Counted from the stretch's first letter, positions 9,241 to 17,255 are shown. The stretch is DNA of 64,000 nt from an uncultured Candidatus Saccharibacteria bacterium (GCA_964460325.1 CAYWPI010000001.1:11105-75104); one strand, 5' to 3'. Numbers and translations: made by a program. The notes: generated by a model from the sequence alone, not told the origin.

Positions 9241-10614
9241 CTACAGGGTCAATTGCTTATTCAAATATTGATCCAGCTCCGCGATCAACACTCTCTCTTG
9301 CTGCATACTATCCCGGTCACGGACCGTCACAGCCTTATCGTCTATAGAATCAAAATCCACGGTCACGCAAAGCGGTGTGCCGATCTCGTCCTGCCGGCGA
9401 TAACGTTTGCCGATAGACTGCGTTTCATCATATTCACAGACGAATTGCTTTGAAAGATGCGCATAGAGCGGTTTGGCTATCTTTGCAAGCTCGTCCTTTT
9501 TTGAAAGCGGCAAAATGGCAACCTTTACCGGCGCCAACCATTTCGGGAACTTCAAGACGACTCTTGAGTCGTCTTGACCCCGCATAGCCTCCTCAGAGGC
9601 GACGTGGGGTATTCCTTCTTCTGTGTAAGCTTCAAGCAGGGCGACCAAAACCGAACGATCAACACCGAACGAAGGCTCAATAACGTGCGGCAAAAACTTG
9701 CTCTTTTGGTCATCTGGATCGGCATACGTTAAGTCTTGTTTAGAAGCCCCTTGGTGACTCTTTAAATCAAAGTCGCCGCGATAGGCTAAGCCGTACAACT
9801 CTTTGCGGCCAAAAGGATAATCATATTCAATATCCACCGTTCGCTTGGAATAGTGCGCGCGATCTGCATCCGGGATATCAACATAGTGTAACTTATCTGA
9901 GCTGACACCAAGATCATGCAACCATTTTTTCATTTGCATGAGCCAGTGATCAAAGTGCGCCTCCCACTCCTGTTCACGAACAAAATACTCAATCTCCATC
10001 TGCTCGAACTCACGGGTGCGGAAGATGAAGTTACCCGGAGTGATCTCGTTTCGAAACGCCTTTCCGATCTGCGCGATACCAAACGGCAACCGACGACGGG
10101 TCGTATCAAGGATATTCTTAAACTGAACAAACATCGCCTGCGCAGTTTCAGGACGAAAATAAACCGTATTCGCCTTTTCTTCGGCCGGACCAAGAAAGGT
10201 TTTAAGCATTAGGTTGAACTGCTTAGCCTCGGCAAATGAGCTTTTTGCCTTACAGCTCTCGCATGGTCCCTTTGCATCAATCTGATCGGCTCGGAATCGC
10301 GCGTGGCACTTCTTACACTCCACGAGCGGATCGTTAAACGTCGCCAGGTGACCAGAAGCCTCCCACACCTTTGGGTTCATAATAAGCGCCGCATCAATAC
10401 CCACCATATCCGCGCGCTGGCGGACAAAACGGTTCCACCACTCGTCTTTAATGTTCTTCTTCAGCTCCGCGCCAAGCGGACCATAGTCCCAGCTGTTTTG
10501 TAGTCCGCCATATATCTCGCTTCCAGGAAAGATAAAGCCTCTGCGCTTGCAAAGCGAGATTATTTTATCCATTAAGTCCGCGGACTTTACTTTTGATTTT
10601 TTATCATTAACCAT
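9241..10614 (-). CDS. glyQS: Glycyl-tRNA synthetase, class II dimeric type
   Basis: 457 aa. N-terminus MVNDKKSKVKSADLMDKIISLCKRRGFIFPGSEIYGG is typical of GlyRS. Confidence 0.9.
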   Translation of the reverse strand: MVNDKKSKVKSADLMDKIISLCKRRGFIFPGSEIYGGLQNSWDYGPLGAELKKNIKDEWWNRFVRQRADMVGIDAALIMNPKVWEASGHLATFNDPLVECKKCHARFRADQIDAKGPCESCKAKSSFAEAKQFNLMLKTFLGPAEEKANTVYFRPETAQAMFVQFKNILDTTRRRLPFGIAQIGKAFRNEITPGNFIFRTREFEQMEIEYFVREQEWEAHFDHWLMQMKKWLHDLGVSSDKLHYVDIPDADRAHYSKRTVDIEYDYPFGRKELYGLAYRGDFDLKSHQGASKQDLTYADPDDQKSKFLPHVIEPSFGVDRSVLVALLEAYTEEGIPHVASEEAMRGQDDSRVVLKFPKWLAPVKVAILPLSKKDELAKIAKPLYAHLSKQFVCEYDETQSIGKRYRRQDEIGTPLCVTVDFDSIDDKAVTVRDRDSMQQERVLIAELDQYLNKQLTL

Positions 10615-10645
10615 TGGCGTATTTGCTACATGTCACGTGTTATTC

Positions 10646-12364
10646 TTACGGGCTAACCTGCTTGTCTTGCGCATCAAGCGTTGGATCGCTGATTAAGATT
10701 GTCGTAAAAGGGTAGATTTTGTCAAAATACGACGCATCAACAAATAAGTCCATCGCGTTCACTGTTGTTTCTCCAATAAGCGTTGGAAATTGATTAATCT
10801 GATTGCTTGACGGCGTTATCTCCACCTGGAACACCAATCGGACAGGCTCATCAATAATACCCTTGGTAGCATTTATCTTGCCCGCAATCCAGACAAACTC
10901 TTGCGTTCGTTCGTTATATTGGGGCGCGACACCATTTGTCGCAAAATACTTTCCTGTATAACGAACATGCGGGCCCAAGAACGTCTTCAGCGTAACTTCA
11001 TCCATATCAGTCGCCTCGTTGCGCACAACCCAGTGCATAGTAAAAGTGGTTGGTTGACCCACACGAAGCGGCAAGGGGCCGCTGTTGGTAATACCCGAGT
11101 CATCCTTAAAAAACGCATCCACAGCAGGGCGCAACATACCCTTTACTTTTGTCTCAAGCGCAACCGATCCAATGGTTCGCCCTGAAGAAACTTTCGGAGG
11201 AACAGTTGGTGATTCGATTTCAGCAAGCATTTTTAAAACAAAATGCTTATCGCTGATACGCTTGATGGGATAATCAGATTTCACCTTGGCCGAAAAAGAA
11301 ACTGAACCGCTCTCGCCGGGACGAATCACATTAAGATCAGGAACGCGCGCGGCATTCCACTGAATACTTGCGTCCGAAGAGCGATACACGCCCTCATCAG
11401 AATCAATTTCGCTCATATCAAACATATCGCCAATCAACTTGGCAGTAATAATCACGTCTTTAAGCCCCACATCGGTATTATTGCGATAGGTCAGTGTATA
11501 CGAAAGCAAATCTCCAGGCGTGGCAACATAATCCACAGCTCGCTCCACGGTGGCGACAAGCGAAAGGGGCGACGGCGAAAGAGACAGCGAGGCGGTCTTT
11601 TGATTAACCAAATATGCCTTTCCTAGAAACGAAGTATTCACGCCAACCATAAAATCAAAAAAAGCATTATCGGGCCCGGACATGCTTCCTTTTATCGTAA
11701 AACTGCCCTTTGAACCAGCGCGTAAATCGCCGAGCCTCCAGTTTGTCGTTCCTTCATCTGGGGTCAAGGTTGACGAGATAAACGTAAAGCCCCGAGGATA
11801 CTCAAACCCAAGCACCAAATCATAAAAATCAGTATCCGCCTTGTTTTCGTAATCAACCCTTATTTCAAACGTTTCTCCCGCAAATACTTTTTGAGGAAGC
11901 GCAAGATCAAGACTTATGCCAGACTCACCAATACTGATATCTTTGCTGGCTTGCTTTTCAAAGCGCGATCCAAGATTGGTTGGCACATACGAAAGCGCCG
12001 CCCGCAGCTGCACTAAATTATTTTCACCCGAAACTGGCATAATGCGAAACTCTTGATTGGTTACCGTTCCCTTCCCAAGACTTCCCAATGATTTATTAAT
12101 TACGCGCTTACTGGCTGGCTCAGTCATAAAAACCATGCCATCTGGCAAACTTATCGATAACGAAGTTTCTTGCGCCACGCCACTGCCAGTATTACTAATT
12201 GAGACTTTCGCGGTAAATGGAACGCCAATTTGCGCGCTATCGGGCGCGTTTACCACAACTTCAACACCACCCGCTTGGCGAGCTTGATACCATAAATACG
12301 TAATCAAGCTTCCGCCGATCACAAAAAGCACAACAAAAAGAATAATGATTGTTTTCCAGCGCAT
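10646..12364 (-). CDS. Membrane-anchored surface protein with repeated beta-rich domains (DUF11/CARDB-like)
   Basis: N-terminal transmembrane segment and a 572-aa Ser/Thr/Gly-rich repetitive extracellular region. Confidence 0.5.
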   Translation of the reverse strand: MRWKTIIILFVVLFVIGGSLITYLWYQARQAGGVEVVVNAPDSAQIGVPFTAKVSISNTGSGVAQETSLSISLPDGMVFMTEPASKRVINKSLGSLGKGTVTNQEFRIMPVSGENNLVQLRAALSYVPTNLGSRFEKQASKDISIGESGISLDLALPQKVFAGETFEIRVDYENKADTDFYDLVLGFEYPRGFTFISSTLTPDEGTTNWRLGDLRAGSKGSFTIKGSMSGPDNAFFDFMVGVNTSFLGKAYLVNQKTASLSLSPSPLSLVATVERAVDYVATPGDLLSYTLTYRNNTDVGLKDVIITAKLIGDMFDMSEIDSDEGVYRSSDASIQWNAARVPDLNVIRPGESGSVSFSAKVKSDYPIKRISDKHFVLKMLAEIESPTVPPKVSSGRTIGSVALETKVKGMLRPAVDAFFKDDSGITNSGPLPLRVGQPTTFTMHWVVRNEATDMDEVTLKTFLGPHVRYTGKYFATNGVAPQYNERTQEFVWIAGKINATKGIIDEPVRLVFQVEITPSSNQINQFPTLIGETTVNAMDLFVDASYFDKIYPFTTILISDPTLDAQDKQVSP

Positions 12365-12440
12365 GAAAATAAATAACTAATCAGATCACCGAAAACTCTC
12401 GGCAAGATACACGATATATACCTTATTAGTTTAGCATATG

Positions 12441-12962
12441 CTACGTCGCAACGCGGCCAAGGCGATACACACCTTCGATACTGGAAAATGTCTTTACGCA
12501 CCGCATGCAGTAATAATGCGCATCACGACTAGAAAAATACTCTGGATTCTTTGTCTCGCACAATGCGCACGTCGCGTGTCTCGGATCAAAACCCAAAATA
12601 GTTAATATGTGAAGCGCAGAGGGTTTTGCAGAGGCAAGTTCATGCCATAAACGCTCATCAGCGTGATGTTCAGAGGTAAGTGAGCGCACAATCTGACACA
12701 GGCCAATCTGCTCTCTGGAAATGTTCACGTTGCCTCGCGCCGGCAAGGCGTCAACAATCTGAATACCGTTCTTCTCAACCAATCGAACCTGCACGCGACG
12801 CATTGGCTGCAGATAACTTGAAAGACGAGAAGTAATATGCCCAGCGCTGCGCGCCCGTGCCATTATCCGGCCAAGCTCTTTGGTGTATAAAAAAATGCGG
12901 GCGTCGGTTTCGCCAGCAATCTCTCTGTCTAATACAATCGCTTCGGTGAGATATTCGCGCAT
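12441..12962 (-). CDS. recO: DNA repair protein RecO (short)
   Basis: N-terminal OB-fold-like MREYLTEAIVL... and a C-terminal Cys4 zinc-finger pattern. Confidence 0.65.
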   Translation of the reverse strand: MREYLTEAIVLDREIAGETDARIFLYTKELGRIMARARSAGHITSRLSSYLQPMRRVQVRLVEKNGIQIVDALPARGNVNISREQIGLCQIVRSLTSEHHADERLWHELASAKPSALHILTILGFDPRHATCALCETKNPEYFSSRDAHYYCMRCVKTFSSIEGVYRLGRVAT

Positions 12963-13031
12963 GCCTTCAGCATATCACAGGAGCCAAGTCGCGCATGCGC
13001 AACTTGGCTCCGATATTATACTTCCGCCGCT

Positions 13032-13448
13032 CTAACCGGCAGCGAGTTTGTACGCTCGTTCGCTAACGGCCTGCACCAGTCCTTCACCAACCTGGGATCG
13101 TTCGTATGCCATCTGGCATCCGCACATACAATATTCCCGCCTGACGGCCTCCGTGTCAGAGATGGCAATACGCAAGCAGTCGCGCCCATCCTCCGTATCG
13201 CGACGACACAGCTCCGAAACAAGTCGTAGTGGTGAAGCGCCCTGTACTGATCGCACCTTGTGATCATCGACAACCACAATGTCGCGCCGAGGATCGTGCA
13301 TGCAAAGCAAACGACCCCCTTCAACCGTATCGCTTTCCATAAAAACAAAGTGCTGTCGCGGGAAACGTACACCTAGCAATTCTTCGAGTACCTCACGGAA
13401 AGACTCGGTAAGCCCAATCCAGATGACCGTAATCGCCTTCTTGAGCAT
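13032..13448 (-). CDS. Hypothetical 138-aa protein, high-GC cassette b
   Basis: SD AAGGAGGA upstream of the ATG. High GC. C-terminal CMCGC motif. Confidence 0.45.
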   Translation of the reverse strand: MLKKAITVIWIGLTESFREVLEELLGVRFPRQHFVFMESDTVEGGRLLCMHDPRRDIVVVDDHKVRSVQGASPLRLVSELCRRDTEDGRDCLRIAISDTEAVRREYCMCGCQMAYERSQVGEGLVQAVSERAYKLAAG

Positions 13449-13539
13449 CTCATCCTCCTTGCTTGACGCAAAAAATCCACCGGGAACCGTGTTTGTAGAA
13501 ATACAAGCCTTTTACTAAAAAGTCAAGAAACGGATGGCT

Positions 13540-14058
13540 TTACACTCCCTGCGCCTTTGAGCCACGGGCGCGGCGAATCAGTTCGTCGCGCAGCTGTTCT
13601 GCCTCTGCGCGGGACAAAGCCGGAAGTCTTCCCTCGGCGTGCATACCCGATGTTCCTCGGCGGGTTACAAGGGCGCTTGCGCCGGCTGTTTGAATATGCA
13701 AATCGGAGAGCCCAAGAATGCGAGCCAAGATGCCACGATAGATATCCACATTCTGGATGCGCTCATAAGGAATAGTTACGTAACGCTTATAGATAACGCC
13801 TGATTCTTTCCGAAAGCCATTCTCAGTAAGTTCATAGAGAAAGTAACCATACGAAAGCTTCGCCCAGATCCAGCACAGCGCCAGAACGATAATCAGCATG
13901 GGCCAAAACAGATTGAGTGGAATGCTATAGCCTTGCTCCAAGGCCACGACCGCGACGTCGGCAAGTATCCAAAAACGGACAACCACTAAAAATAGTGTCC
14001 AGCGAAATGCCAGTCTTATGAAAAACAGCCAGAGCGCTTTCGGGTCAAGATGCTTCAT
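13540..14058 (-). CDS. Bacterial PH-domain membrane protein (YdbS/YdbT-like)
   Basis: Two transmembrane helices followed by a bPH_2-like domain. Start chosen at MKHLDPK. Confidence 0.55.
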   Translation of the reverse strand: MKHLDPKALWLFFIRLAFRWTLFLVVVRFWILADVAVVALEQGYSIPLNLFWPMLIIVLALCWIWAKLSYGYFLYELTENGFRKESGVIYKRYVTIPYERIQNVDIYRGILARILGLSDLHIQTAGASALVTRRGTSGMHAEGRLPALSRAEAEQLRDELIRRARGSKAQGV

Positions 14059-14082
14059 GATCTGTGATGTTATGTTTTTATT

Positions 14083-14162
14083 GTGCGGGATATTGAATTT
14101 AGTTCGAACCGTGTTCGCGGCGCCGCCCGCCACCGGCGCACGCGAAGGGCGAACCGGTCTTT
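14083..14162. repeat. IR-A left arm: 80-bp perfect inverted repeat
   Basis: Exact reverse complement of 15258-15337, compared by eye. Confidence 0.85.
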
Positions 14163-14265
14163 AACAATTTCAAGTTGTTTTTTGGCGGCAAATTCTTGAT
14201 TTGATTGTATCCTAATTTGCTGAAAAGAAAAGGAACCCTTAACGATCGCGTACTGCGATGGGTTC

Positions 14266-14670
14266 CTACGGGGGCGTTGCAGCCCCAGCTGAAGACGACA
14301 GAGATGGATTCAGTCGTCGGGTTCGGACGAGAGCGAGCAGCGTCAGTAGCTCTTGCGGAGCAACGTATCCACCAAGTTGCTCCACCATCAGTGCGGCCTT
14401 CTCGATGTCTTCCTTGCTGAACTGGCTGGGCGCTTCGGGTCGCAACTGCTTCGCGATGCCATGAAGAGCGCGAGCGTCTTCTTCTGTCTTCCCGCAAGCC
14501 CTTGCAATGGCCAGCAAGGTCTTCAGACGCGGCACGAGTGTGATCGTCTCCTCGATGCGCCGGATCTGCGAGATCGCGATCTTCGCCTTTTCGGCGAGTT
14601 GCTCGCGACTTAGACCTGCTTCCTTGCGCCAAGCCCGAACGGTCGCGCCGACACCTTGAACTTCGTTCAT
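14266..14670 (-). CDS. XRE-family HTH transcriptional regulator
   Basis: HTH signature LSREQLAEKAKIAISQIRRIE. High GC. Start overlaps the upstream ORF stop (ATGA). Confidence 0.6.
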   Translation of the reverse strand: MNEVQGVGATVRAWRKEAGLSREQLAEKAKIAISQIRRIEETITLVPRLKTLLAIARACGKTEEDARALHGIAKQLRPEAPSQFSKEDIEKAALMVEQLGGYVAPQELLTLLALVRTRRLNPSLSSSAGAATPP

Positions 14671-14850
14671 CCGCGTTTCTCCTGAATGAGCTCGTGAATG
14701 GCGCGGATGGACATCACGATCCAGAATCCGCCGACGCCACCGGCAATCGAAGGAACGATCTTGATTCCGATCGCGTACCCGATCGCAGCTACGGTCAGCA
14801 AGACATACGCACCGATCGTGAAGAGCATGGCTGCTTTAGCGGTTTCCATC
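14667..14850 (-). CDS. Small membrane protein (~60 aa)
   Basis: METAKAAMLFTIGAYVLLTVAAIGYAIG... SD AAGGAGGAG. Translationally coupled by TGATG/ATGA overlaps on both sides. Confidence 0.4.
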
Positions 14851-15093
14851 ACTCCTCCTTCTTCTCGTTCGGACGAACGATGATCATGCTCCCCCCGAAG
14901 CCCAGCTTCCATCCTAGGAGCCAAGCGATGATGAGGATCCCGATCGAGATCCCGATGCCCGGCAGGATCGCAGGACGCCCGACGGCCCACAATGGGACGC
15001 CGAAAGCTCCTGCCCACATCAGCACGAAGAAGATGCGGTAGACGACCGCCTCACGCGGACCGAGCTCGTGCACGGTCAAGTTGGCAGGTCCCA
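14850..15093 (-). CDS. Small membrane protein (~81 aa)
   Basis: MGPANLTVHELG... with two transmembrane segments. First gene of a three-gene minus-strand operon. Confidence 0.35.
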
Positions 15094-15257
15094 TGTGTAC
15101 TCCAAGTGCCACAATTGGCCTGCTGAATATGCCACATCTCAAAATAAAAAGCAAATATAAAACAAAAACAGCCCCTTTGGGCCGTTTCTCAAAAATGTTC
15201 TTTTCTTCTTTCCCTCTGATTCGAGCCGATGGATTTCCGGGCTCTTTGGCGGTTTTG

Positions 15258-15337
15258 AAAGACCGGTTCGCCCTTCGCGTGCGCCGGTGGCGGGCGGCGC
15301 CGCGAACACGGTTCGAACTAAATTCAATATCCCGCAC
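15258..15337. repeat. IR-A right arm
   Basis: Reverse complement of 14083-14162. Confidence 0.85.
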
Positions 15338-15406
15338 AAGTCAGAAGATGTCAACGCCTCGCGCCGACTTTGTCGGCGCTCGGCGAGCTGTTGGTACGGC
15401 GGTTTC
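15334..15406. repeat. IR-B left arm: 73-bp perfect inverted repeat, abutting IR-A
   Basis: Exact reverse complement of 16845-16917. Shares GCAC with the end of IR-A. Confidence 0.85.
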
Positions 15407-15449
15407 TCTTAGGGAAAGAAGAAAAGAACATTTTTGAGTTAAATCTCAT

Positions 15450-17255
15450 ATGAAATACATACTGTACGCAAGAAAATCAACAGAAGAAGACGACAGACAA
15501 GTCTTGAGTATTCAGGCGCAACTCGCAGAGTTGCGAGAATTTGCCGCCAAAGAACACCTTGAAATTGTTGCTTCCTTTCAGGAAGCCAAAACCGCCAAAG
15601 AGCCCGGGCGAATTAAATTCGCAGAAATGGTGGCAATGATTGAATCCAAGAAAGCAGACGGAATCATAAGCTGGCACCCCGATCGTCTTGCTCGCAATTC
15701 CGTAGATGGAGGCAAGATTATTCATTTGATCGATCGCGGCTTGATCAAGTCATTAAAATTTCCCACCTTCTGGTTTGAGGCCACCCCACAAGGTGTGTTC
15801 ATGCTCAATATCGCCTTTGGACAGAGTAAATATTTTGTAGATAATTTGCGAGAGAATGTGAAGCGGGGACTACGACAGAAGATCAGAAACGGCATCTGGC
15901 CTGGCTGGGCTCCGGTGGGGTATATTAATAATCCACGAACGCGAGATATTGATGTTGATAGTGAAAAAGCTCCAAAAGTGAAGAAGTTGTTTGAGATGTA
16001 CGCCACCGGAGCATACACACTAAGTTCTCTCGCAAATTGGTGCGTGGAAAATAATCTCAAGGGCAACAGGGAGAAGAAAATATCAATCAGCAATCTGCAG
16101 AGTATTCTACAAAATATTTTCTACGTTGGCCTCATGAGATATCGTGGGGAAATTTTCGAAGGCAAGCACGAGCCACTCATCTCAAAGAAACTTTTTGATG
16201 AAGTCCAAAAAGCGATGAAAAACCGAGGAAAACAGAAACACGTTCGTAAACATCACTTTGCTTTTCTTGGCCTACTCAAATGCGCTTCGTGCGGTTGCTC
16301 CATCACCGGCGAACGTCAGAAGGGTCACAACTATTATCGCTGCACCAAAAAGAAAGGCCCATGCCAAGAAAAGCATTATCTTCGAGAAGAAGATTTATTA
16401 GCTCAAATCAAAAGCATTCTTCAAAAAGTTTCTTTGGGAAGCCACGACACTGAAAGAGTTTTGGCGGCGCTCGCAGGCGAGGAGGCGGAGGCAAAAGAAT
16501 ACTCTCAAAATGAAGTAGGGTTATTAAAATCAAAACTGACAGAAATAGAAGCCAAACTCTCCCGCCTCCTCGACCTGTATCTTGCGAGCGAAATATCCCT
16601 TAGCAAAGAGGAGTTCGCCGCCAAAAAAGAAAGCCTTGTCTTGCAAAAGGCAGAATTAGCTCAGAAAATTAATGATATTGAGCAAAAAGGAGTGTCGTGG
16701 CTCGAACCGGCTCGTGAGTTCGTTCTATCCTTGAATCAAGCCGCGAAACTGCTTGAGAATGGGAACCCAGAATCATTGCCACCATTTCTCAAAGCCATCG
16801 GCTCGAACCACACCCTTCAAAACCGACAAGTCGGTTTTGAGCTGAAACCGCCGTACCAACAGCTCGCCGAGCGCCGACAAAGTCGGCGCGAGGCGTTGAC
16901 ATCTTCTGACTTGTGCCCGGGACAGGAGTCGAACCTGCATGCCTTGCGGCGCTACCACCTCAAGGTAGTGCGTCTGCCATTTCGCCACCCGGGCAAACTT
17001 GCATTAACAATCTCGACGCTTGCAATACAAGGTCGGGACTCCGACCCGGTCATAGCGTCGGATCTGACAACTAATAACTTACAACAAGCAACAAGAACTT
17101 TCAAATCAAAACCGCCCTTGCGGGCGGCAATGAGTTATTTTTCTTTTGTGTCAGCCTCTTTTGCTTCAGCCGGCTTGGTGGCTGCCTTTTTGTCGTTACC
17201 ACGCTCAGCAGACATCTTACGACGAATCGCCTTCCTGCTAATATCTCGGATGTAA
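15450..17255 (+). CDS. Large serine recombinase; the ORF has no in-frame stop and reads through IR-B and tRNA-Leu, so it may be a pseudogene or carry a non-native 3' end
   Basis: YARKST catalytic-serine motif at the N-terminus, resolvase domain, recombinase domain, zinc ribbon CASCGCS...YYRC and a coiled coil. The native end is probably near ~16845. Confidence 0.75.
   Translation: MKYILYARKSTEEDDRQVLSIQAQLAELREFAAKEHLEIVASFQEAKTAKEPGRIKFAEMVAMIESKKADGIISWHPDRLARNSVDGGKIIHLIDRGLIKSLKFPTFWFEATPQGVFMLNIAFGQSKYFVDNLRENVKRGLRQKIRNGIWPGWAPVGYINNPRTRDIDVDSEKAPKVKKLFEMYATGAYTLSSLANWCVENNLKGNREKKISISNLQSILQNIFYVGLMRYRGEIFEGKHEPLISKKLFDEVQKAMKNRGKQKHVRKHHFAFLGLLKCASCGCSITGERQKGHNYYRCTKKKGPCQEKHYLREEDLLAQIKSILQKVSLGSHDTERVLAALAGEEAEAKEYSQNEVGLLKSKLTEIEAKLSRLLDLYLASEISLSKEEFAAKKESLVLQKAELAQKINDIEQKGVSWLEPAREFVLSLNQAAKLLENGNPESLPPFLKAIGSNHTLQNRQVGFELKPPYQQLAERRQSRREALTSSDLCPGQESNLHALRRYHLKVVRLPFRHPGKLALTISTLAIQGRDSDPVIASDLTTNNLQQATRTFKSKPPLRAAMSYFSFVSASFASAGLVAAFLSLPRSADILRRIAFLLISRM
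16845..16917. repeat. IR-B right arm; its last 4 nt overlap the 3' end of tRNA-Leu
   Basis: Reverse complement of 15334-15406. Confidence 0.85.
16914..16994 (-). tRNA. tRNA-Leu(GAG)
   Basis: Manual fold: acceptor GCCCGGG, anticodon loop TTGAGGT, long variable arm, T-loop GGTTCGACTCC. Confidence 0.8.
17100..17128 (-). terminator. rplS terminator
   Basis: Hairpin CCGCCCTTGCGGGCGG followed by a T-run on the minus strand. Confidence 0.55.

Follow-up and report, generated by a model that had tools for sequence, protein, structure and literature searches.

Three small genes between inverted repeats in a Candidatus Saccharibacteria genome as probable cargo of a tRNA-associated serine-recombinase element

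In a 64,000-nucleotide stretch of DNA from an uncultured Candidatus Saccharibacteria bacterium (the whole of which is referred to here as the window), three small GC-rich genes lie between inverted repeats, next to the gene of a large serine recombinase. The locus raises the question of what these genes are, and whether the repeats, as the original prediction hinted, serve to vary their expression. The analysis favors another answer: the trio is likely to be the cargo of a small integrative element situated at the 3' end of tRNA-Leu(GAG).

Composition and relatives of the gene trio

All three open reading frames are encoded on the minus strand (Table 1) and overlap by TGATG (ORF1/ORF2) and ATGA (ORF2/ORF3), so that the number, strand, sizes (81, 60 and 134 aa) and coupling originally described were confirmed from the sequence. 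The span first given, 14266-15093, is correct at the end of ORF3 and stops one base short of the ATG of ORF1, which begins at 15094. The GC content, put at about 62%, was measured at 0.62, 0.56 and 0.60 for ORF1, ORF2 and ORF3, respectively, i.e., about 60%, with GC3 values of 0.80, 0.69 and 0.63; the adjoining host genes have a GC content of approximately 0.50 and the recombinase gene of 0.45. Hydropathy analysis revealed two segments of transmembrane (TM) length in each of ORF1 and ORF2, in agreement with their description as tiny two-TM (2-TM) proteins, and none in ORF3. GGAG-type Shine-Dalgarno sequences can be read directly upstream of all three start codons. Counted from segment c, the cassette is ordered as a terminator-like hairpin, an AT-rich stretch with a weak promoter, the three genes, and a second terminator. 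The candidate promoter is weak by consensus and fell under the threshold in a promoter scan, and the hairpin at the end of ORF3 has a folding energy of -17.7 kcal/mol (z = -2.2). With these features, the cassette is atypical for the slot that it occupies and resembles an entire foreign transcription unit.

Table 1 Features of the trio and of the surrounding element (positions counted from the first letter of the window)
Feature	Position	Strand	Description
Arm A (distal arm, cargo unit)	14081-14162		Reverse complement of A'; matches the A'B profile
b	14163-14196		Inverted copy of recombinase codons 29-40; adjoins the distal arm
Terminator-like hairpin, GGAACCC...GGGTTCC, then T-run	14231-14267	-	Overlaps the ORF3 stop codon
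ORF3	14266-14670	-	134 aa; XRE-family helix-turn-helix (HTH) protein whose C-terminal half is helical and orphan
ORF2	14667-14849	-	60 aa; 2-TM peptide; no relatives found
ORF1	14849-15094	-	81 aa; 2-TM peptide with charged C-terminus; no relatives found
Weak candidate promoter of the trio, TTGCTT-17-CATATT	15126-15154	-	Putative, read from the sequence
Terminator-like hairpin between c and the trio	15164-15189	-	-15.9 kcal/mol, z = -3.3
c, d, e	15188-15257		Three recombinase regions copied in inverted form; order shared with related loci
c	15188-15215		Copy of the recombinase upstream region, 28/28
d	15220-15236		Copy of recombinase C-terminal codons, 16/17
e	15237-15257		Copy of recombinase codons 46-53, 21/21
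Arm A' (proximal arm)	15258-15339		The final ~28 nt (GGTTCGAACTAAATTCAATATCCCGCAC) imitate the 3' end of a tRNA
Junction promoter, TTGACA-17-GATATT	15326-15354	-	-35 in B, -10 in A'; reads into the cargo unit
Arm B (left arm, recombinase unit)	15334-15406		73 nt, 100% complementary to 16844-16916
Large serine recombinase ORF	15450-17255	+	Pfam Resolvase, Recombinase, Zn_ribbon_recom
b'-hp-e' site inside the recombinase coding sequence	15536-15607	+	Covariation, 42 distinct sequences
Hairpin hp	15570-15586	+	GCTTCCTTTCAGGAAGC
Arm B'	16844-16916		Abuts the tRNA 3' end, overlap 4 nt
tRNA-Leu(GAG), insertion target	16913-16994	-	ARAGORN and Rfam

Profile searches support the HTH call made on the third gene: ORF3 exceeds the curated Pfam cut-offs of both HTH_31 (E = 4.5e-11, 43.3 bits, cut-off 27) and HTH_3 (E = 4.6e-10, 39.8 bits, cut-off 23) and is therefore assigned to the XRE / Cro-C1 HTH regulators. 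Its similarities in PADLOC, PHROGs and NCBIfam are of a generic HTH kind and lie under the curated cut-offs, and include the PADLOC models HTH_VI and capH (about 1e-5), the NCBIfam Y4mF/HipB antitoxin model (28.8 bits, cut-off 71.65), and PHROG repressor families (2e-9). ORF1 and ORF2 match no family in PADLOC, PHROGs, NCBIfam or Pfam. Specifically, no PADLOC defence signature (ORF1, none; ORF2, LeoB at E = 0.16), no toxin domain of a type II toxin-antitoxin system in ORF1 or ORF2 (Pfam, NCBIfam), and no holin family (Pfam, PHROGs) was detected, and no endolysin is encoded nearby. The original statement that nothing here maps to a named system thus stands, while the likeness to defence, abortive-infection and toxin-antitoxin modules drawn alongside it gained no positive evidence and is limited to gene size and order.

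A homologue search with ORF1 and ORF3 in 5.8 billion proteins returned only the queries themselves, and all three proteins are singletons in a collection of 15 billion. An exhaustive phmmer search of ORF3 against 1.84 billion representatives gave 189 matches, all of them through the HTH (residues ~3-80); none of the 189 covers the C-terminal half, and the sources of the best matches give no pointer to a donor lineage. Plasmid and phage collections contain no DNA match to the cargo. An AlphaFold model predicted for ORF3 from its single sequence (pLDDT 62.7) was too uncertain for a fold search. Conservation of the trio in other genomes did not materialize either, in that no homologous trio was found and none of the 160 related loci carries a trio-like cassette. 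A 45-aa match between a TM segment of the trio and the cargo of locus L069 was judged to be compositional. As ORF1 and ORF2 are without homologues, it is their sequence features that argue for coding status, and the same lack means that both could be non-functional.

An element with two pairs of inverted arms

The trio lies within an element of ~2.83 kb (~14081-16916) at the 3' end of tRNA-Leu(GAG), which on the plus strand consists of arm A, the cargo segment, arm A', arm B, the large serine recombinase gene and arm B', followed by the tRNA. It comprises two units, each enclosed by near-perfect inverted arms: a cargo unit (A, b, cargo, c-d-e, A') and a recombinase unit (B, recombinase, B'). 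The repeats of approximately 80 bp first reported to bracket the trio are arms A and A', which are 100% complementary over 82 nt; the outer end of A is an inverted copy of the pseudo-tRNA end. From the tRNA side, the order is tRNA joined to B, recombinase (antisense), B', A, e', d', c', ORF1-3, b', and A', followed by 22 nt and the bPH gene. Segment b matches the complement of 15536-15569 at 32 of 34 nt, and the 100% identity of c and e with the recombinase gene of this very locus indicates that the cargo belongs to this element. Two Logan unitigs (k=31, SRR15237813) cover 14133-15287 and 10178-14110 at 100%, each breaking off precisely 30 nt into an arm, as a true repeat would cause it to do at this k. 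An Rfam scan detected only tRNAs, and the other nine tRNA genes in the 64-kb window (22253-63877) have no adjoining element or arm-like sequence.

Several neighboring features were recorded along with the element. A 24-nt palindrome (TTCAAAACCGACAAGTCGGTTTTG) at 16817-16840, between d' and B', carries the recurrent CAAAACCG motif and is absent from the equivalent position in the other loci inspected. Just outside arm A lies a bPH_2 membrane-protein gene (13543-14058, minus strand) that is 55-57% identical to a gene in the cargo slot of locus L060 (4068-4595), a likeness which may point to the recruitment of cargo from genes adjoining the element. A 138-aa ORF (13032-13448, minus strand) between the bPH gene and recO had no Pfam match.

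The recombinase contains the domains and the catalytic serine of its class, with a YARKST motif at residues 6-11. Its best NCBIfam similarities are CcrB and XisF, and among solved structures the A118 and SPbeta integrases are its best relatives. Conservation extends to about 16850, and the remainder of the ORF reads through B' and the antisense tRNA to the first stop codon (17253-17255), giving a protein of 601 aa (489-520 aa in most relatives; family range 457-656 aa). The C-terminal tail would be set by whatever flanks B', and would consequently differ between the integrated and any circular form. A 7-bp hairpin formed by codons 41-46 (ASFQEA and variants) is maintained across the family by compensatory, partly synonymous, substitutions: 89% of the cells in 42 distinct sequences are paired, versus 38-53% in slid controls, and 51 double-change cells were observed versus 21 in shuffles, with none of 500 shuffles reaching the observed value. 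The same b'-hp-e' unit forms the cassette junctions of one related locus (L057); loci of the standard layout have the long A'/A stem between e and b instead of hp. Many contigs begin exactly at recombinase codons ~19-49, i.e., in the b'-hp-e' stretch (L035, L037, L040, L045, L047, L051, L055, L056, L077, L080, L145, L151 and L157). Contig breaks at codons ~23-49 were considered as a sign of inversion at b', a reading set aside as less likely than a simpler cause, assembly tangling through a stretch of ~70 nt that is nearly identical across co-occurring species.

The register of the arm ends points to a possible mode of integration. Over its outer ~30 nt, A' is similar to the 3' end of a tRNA, the last ~6 nt match the local tRNA in many loci, and a 6-nt core (GCACAA) is common to the tRNA end, the A'/B joint and the joint of A' with the flank. 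In nearly all aligned loci, GTTCG is 29 nt away from the CCA end in the mimic within A', as against 24 nt in real tRNAs, i.e., the outer motif is shifted by 5 bp between the attP-like and the attB-like half-sites. In the sites of serine integrases, attB has the zinc-ribbon-domain motif 5 bp nearer to its centre than attP does (PMC3783163). We infer that GTTCG corresponds to this motif; for a crossover situated ~5-6 nt short of the tRNA end, it would be placed at ~16-24 bp in A' and at 11-19 bp in the tRNA, which equal the published positions for serine integrases (PMC3783163). On the strength of this 5-bp agreement, the A'/B joint is read as a putative attP and the real tRNA 3' end as the corresponding attB, with the tRNA/B joint as attL and the A'/flank joint as attR. 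Recombination between the two sites, presumably catalyzed by the recombinase on a circular intermediate, would yield the inserted form that extends, from the tRNA side, from tRNA/B to A'/flank and retains a second, inverted A'B copy internally. The predicted pre-insertion site (CCCGGGCACAATAAAAACA) has the bPH start codon ~30 nt after the tRNA; neither an empty site nor a circular form or excision product was observed at this locus. Of the two A'B copies, the split one is the same in every chromosomal copy of the element, and the internal joint is always e-A'-B-c'. Standard serine-integrase integration alone gives no inverted arms, and our best explanation assigns no role to the second A'B copy or to the b, c, d and e copies.

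A recombinase family with a variable cargo slot

Relatives of the recombinase number at least 7,700 at E < 1e-10 over both collections scanned. Among the matches listed, those with a name are almost all from Patescibacteria, and the top ones are 72-78% identical. A total of 161 loci were examined (80 from genomes, 80 from metagenomes, and the window), and the full layout of both units, as described above for the window, was found in 86 of them. This architecture of 2.5-3.3 kb recurs in many genomes with unrelated, non-phage cargo, and was recovered by many assemblers and studies. The A'B region can be aligned across 36 loci, which identifies the arms as sequence of the element and not of the host. 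Arm copies are 99-100% identical within a locus, while the equivalent arm is only 54-62% identical between loci, implying that the two copies evolve in concert. A tRNA 3' end abuts B' in 37 of 57 loci, representing at least 12 isoacceptor types (the target tRNAs being those for Leu, Arg, Tyr, Gly, Ile, Glu, Phe, Val, Asn, Ala, Gln and Met). Between genomes, recombinase identity is 69-76%, compared with 32-60% for the L19 protein, and several metagenome-assembled genomes (MAGs) contain two or three copies, both of which indicate horizontal spread.

The genes between c and b differ from locus to locus and are nearly always antisense to the recombinase. They encode TM-anchored secreted proteins, methyltransferases, a radical-SAM protein, AHSA1, DUF218, an FAD protein, Carb_kinase / NAD(P)HX dehydratase, small membrane proteins and many orphans, and their GC content departs from that of the flanks by -0.22 to +0.15. 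The slot usually holds one ORF that starts within ~40 nt of c and stops within ~10 nt of b, and in 33 of 36 loci a promoter-like sequence (TTGACT/TTGCAA-17-TATTCT) across the B/A' joint reads into it, to which the junction promoter of the window (TTGACA-17-GATATT) is equivalent. Single compact ORFs are the rule; complex multi-unit layouts occur in a few metagenome loci, and a clear three-cassette array was seen in L057 only, in which the cassettes are separated by e-hp-b units and one of them has a hairpin variant unlike that in the recombinase gene of L057 itself. Comparisons among three loci, considered at the level of sequence, demonstrate modular exchange between units: L093 and L101 share recombinase units that are 98% identical and have unrelated cargo, whereas L093 and L105 are 100% identical in cargo and flank and 89.5% identical in their recombinase units. 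In L101, tRNA-Val abuts B'; the contig of L093 ends inside B', and its tRNA target, taken by inference from L105, would differ from that of L101. Along with the range of at least 12 tRNA targets and the several copies per MAG, this exchange is indirect evidence of integration or excision.

Variants of the layout were also encountered. L062 and L081 have the recombinase unit alone, between the tRNA and an inverted partial tRNA copy; L074 and L029 have a short A/A' palindrome and no cargo; and in L053 and L067 the recombinase gene is deleted or interrupted. The palindromes of L074 and L029 were considered as empty sites, an interpretation set aside because deletion through an internal GC-rich palindrome explains them equally. 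In L103 (1-1290) and L009 (1-660), a divergent second large serine recombinase gene (36-52% identical) ends against arm A, which suggests that a cargo unit can be flanked by recombinase units on both sides. The upstream copy in L009 was tried as the predicted B'A circle joint and rejected, being a divergent paralogue without a B' arm. The 1,753-nt contig L107 has the full A'B sequence on both sides of a recombinase segment, an arrangement that would be expected for a circular or tandem form of the composite.

Alternative readings and comparison with known systems

The perfect 82-nt inverted repeats beside a serine recombinase would also suit a phase-variable inverton, in which the recombinase flips the 1.1-kb segment between A and A' and thereby switches the trio or its neighbors. 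The unitigs at k=31 cannot distinguish the two orientations, so that an occasional or short-lived flip within the source population would be invisible. Frequent inversion between A and A' would nevertheless leave both orientations in assemblies, and only one is seen: b lies beside the distal arm in all of 36 related loci and in 72 of the 86 composite loci, with b undetected in the other 14 and beside the proximal arm in none. Moreover, the promoter at the junction is made from both arms and situated outside the segment, the enzyme is a large integrase-type recombinase rather than a small invertase, and the trio has its own terminators on both sides. The Hin, Gin and Pin invertons and FLP of the yeast 2-micron plasmid likewise have inverted repeats flanking a segment next to, or holding, the recombinase gene, but the present family differs from them in the lack of orientation polymorphism across loci as well as in its integrase-type enzyme. 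We therefore consider such a switch improbable, and the hint of phase-variable expression is not borne out by the single orientation across related loci. In the integrative element, the repeats would instead be structural and recombination arms. The GC jump from ~0.48 to ~0.60, together with arms long enough to mislead assemblers, could be taken to mean that a high-GC fragment of another organism was joined in through the repeat during assembly. This hardly seems credible, given that the cargo segment holds copies of the upstream and coding sequence of its own recombinase (28/28 and 21/21), that independent unitigs cover both types of junction, and that many studies, with many assemblers, recovered the same layout.

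Two further possibilities concern the nature of the genes. An XRE regulator and small membrane proteins with a serine integrase beside a tRNA form the classic pattern of a prophage end, and the match of ORF3 to PHROG repressor families (2e-9) would fit a decayed prophage or plasmid in which repressor, holin-like genes and integrase are left from a larger element. The same architecture with unrelated non-phage cargo in many genomes, and the lack of DNA matches in phage and plasmid collections, make this very unlikely; among the matches listed, the only relatives in viral contigs (IMG/VR) are two truncated ones, L082 and L083, in which recombinase residues 1-117 match near a contig end and unrelated sequence follows. 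Alternatively, the trio may be a toxin-antitoxin, abortive-infection or exclusion module, in which one or both 2-TM peptides would gate or damage the membrane and would be repressed or neutralized by the XRE protein, a possibility to which we assign a low although appreciable probability. Small 2-TM proteins with a charged tail and coupling to an HTH protein are known among type V GhoT-like toxins, class II holins and phage immunity regions. The trio is similar to these in size, in its two TM helices, in the charged tail and in the HTH coupling, and its XRE gene is the last in order, as in toxin-first toxin-antitoxin operons; addiction modules are, besides, frequent among the cargo of mobile elements, and the HipB/Y4mF antitoxin and capH-type HTH models show a weak similarity to ORF3, below threshold. 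However, the trio shares no sequence or profile similarity with GhoT-like toxins, holins or phage immunity regions, ORF1 and ORF2 drew a blank in all four family collections, the ORF3 matches in PADLOC and NCBIfam are those of a generic HTH under curated cut-offs, and the trio is conserved nowhere in the collections searched. A function of this kind is in any case compatible with the trio as cargo.

The position of the trio inside the cargo slot of a conserved element, which takes different genes in different genomes, leads us to regard it as a horizontally acquired, self-contained transcription unit. As cargo of the integrative element at tRNA-Leu(GAG), it would be a fragment from a donor of higher GC content that brought along its own hairpin, weak promoter, Shine-Dalgarno-led coupled genes and terminator. 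ORF3, a repressor-type XRE protein, most likely autoregulates the operon encoding the two 2-TM peptides. Judged from its sequence, the trio is thus probably an autoregulated accessory cargo, in which the regulator is co-transcribed with both peptides.

The element is composed of known kinds of parts, namely a serine integrase, a tRNA target and cargo, and is set apart by its nested perfect arms, pseudo-tRNA attP, in-frame hairpin site and integron-like slot. The combination of Resolvase, Recombinase and zinc-ribbon domains, the attP-like site adjoining the gene and the 5-bp register between attP and attB are shared with the elements of large serine recombinases (A118 and Bxb1 integrases, TnpX of Tn4451, TndX of Tn5397, Ccr of SCCmec, XisF), and Tn4451 likewise has a promoter formed across a joint. 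Unlike in those, two nested near-perfect inverted arm pairs of ~80-100 bp are present, a second, inverted attP-like copy is internal, the generic 3' end of many tRNAs serves as target, and a hairpin in the recombinase frame is combined with a slot for one variable gene. Tycheposons, too, are reportedly small elements that integrate at tRNA genes and carry cargo, in some cases with a large serine recombinase. Compared with these, the CPR elements are much smaller and have an inverted-arm architecture and a pseudo-tRNA end. Integrons resemble the family in a recombinase gene divergent from a slot of variable, mostly single, tightly packed ORFs, in a slot promoter on the recombinase side and a palindromic cassette junction, and, in one locus (L057), in a three-cassette array. 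They differ in that the recombinase here is a serine and not a tyrosine enzyme, no IntI and no homology to attC or attI was found, there is usually one cassette, the cassette boundaries copy parts of the recombinase gene, and the whole platform is mobile and tied to tRNAs. It is conceivable, if on balance doubtful, that the family is a serine-recombinase counterpart of integrons, i.e., a mobile, tRNA-targeting gene-capture platform specific to CPR/Patescibacteria, and the trio a freshly captured cassette. Single-gene cassettes would then be exchanged at the b'-hp-e' site, which is also written into the recombinase coding sequence, and would be expressed from the promoter that the two arms form at their junction.

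No description of this element was found in the full-text literature, the coverage of which is incomplete, and it seems to be a previously undescribed element that is widespread in CPR/Patescibacteria. The trio itself, an orphan regulator with two membrane peptides, carries less weight and serves mainly as an example of foreign cargo, whereas a hairpin site within a coding sequence, together with nested perfect arms, poses a mechanistic question beyond standard models of serine integrases. Since the recombinase appears to land at a generic tRNA 3' end and has a readable attP, it is a candidate for use as a genetic tool in organisms that resist manipulation. The genomes of CPR/Patescibacteria are tiny, and few routes by which these bacteria gain genes are known; with at least 7,700 relatives and a different accessory gene in almost every genome, the family would be a major, overlooked vehicle of gene flow among them.
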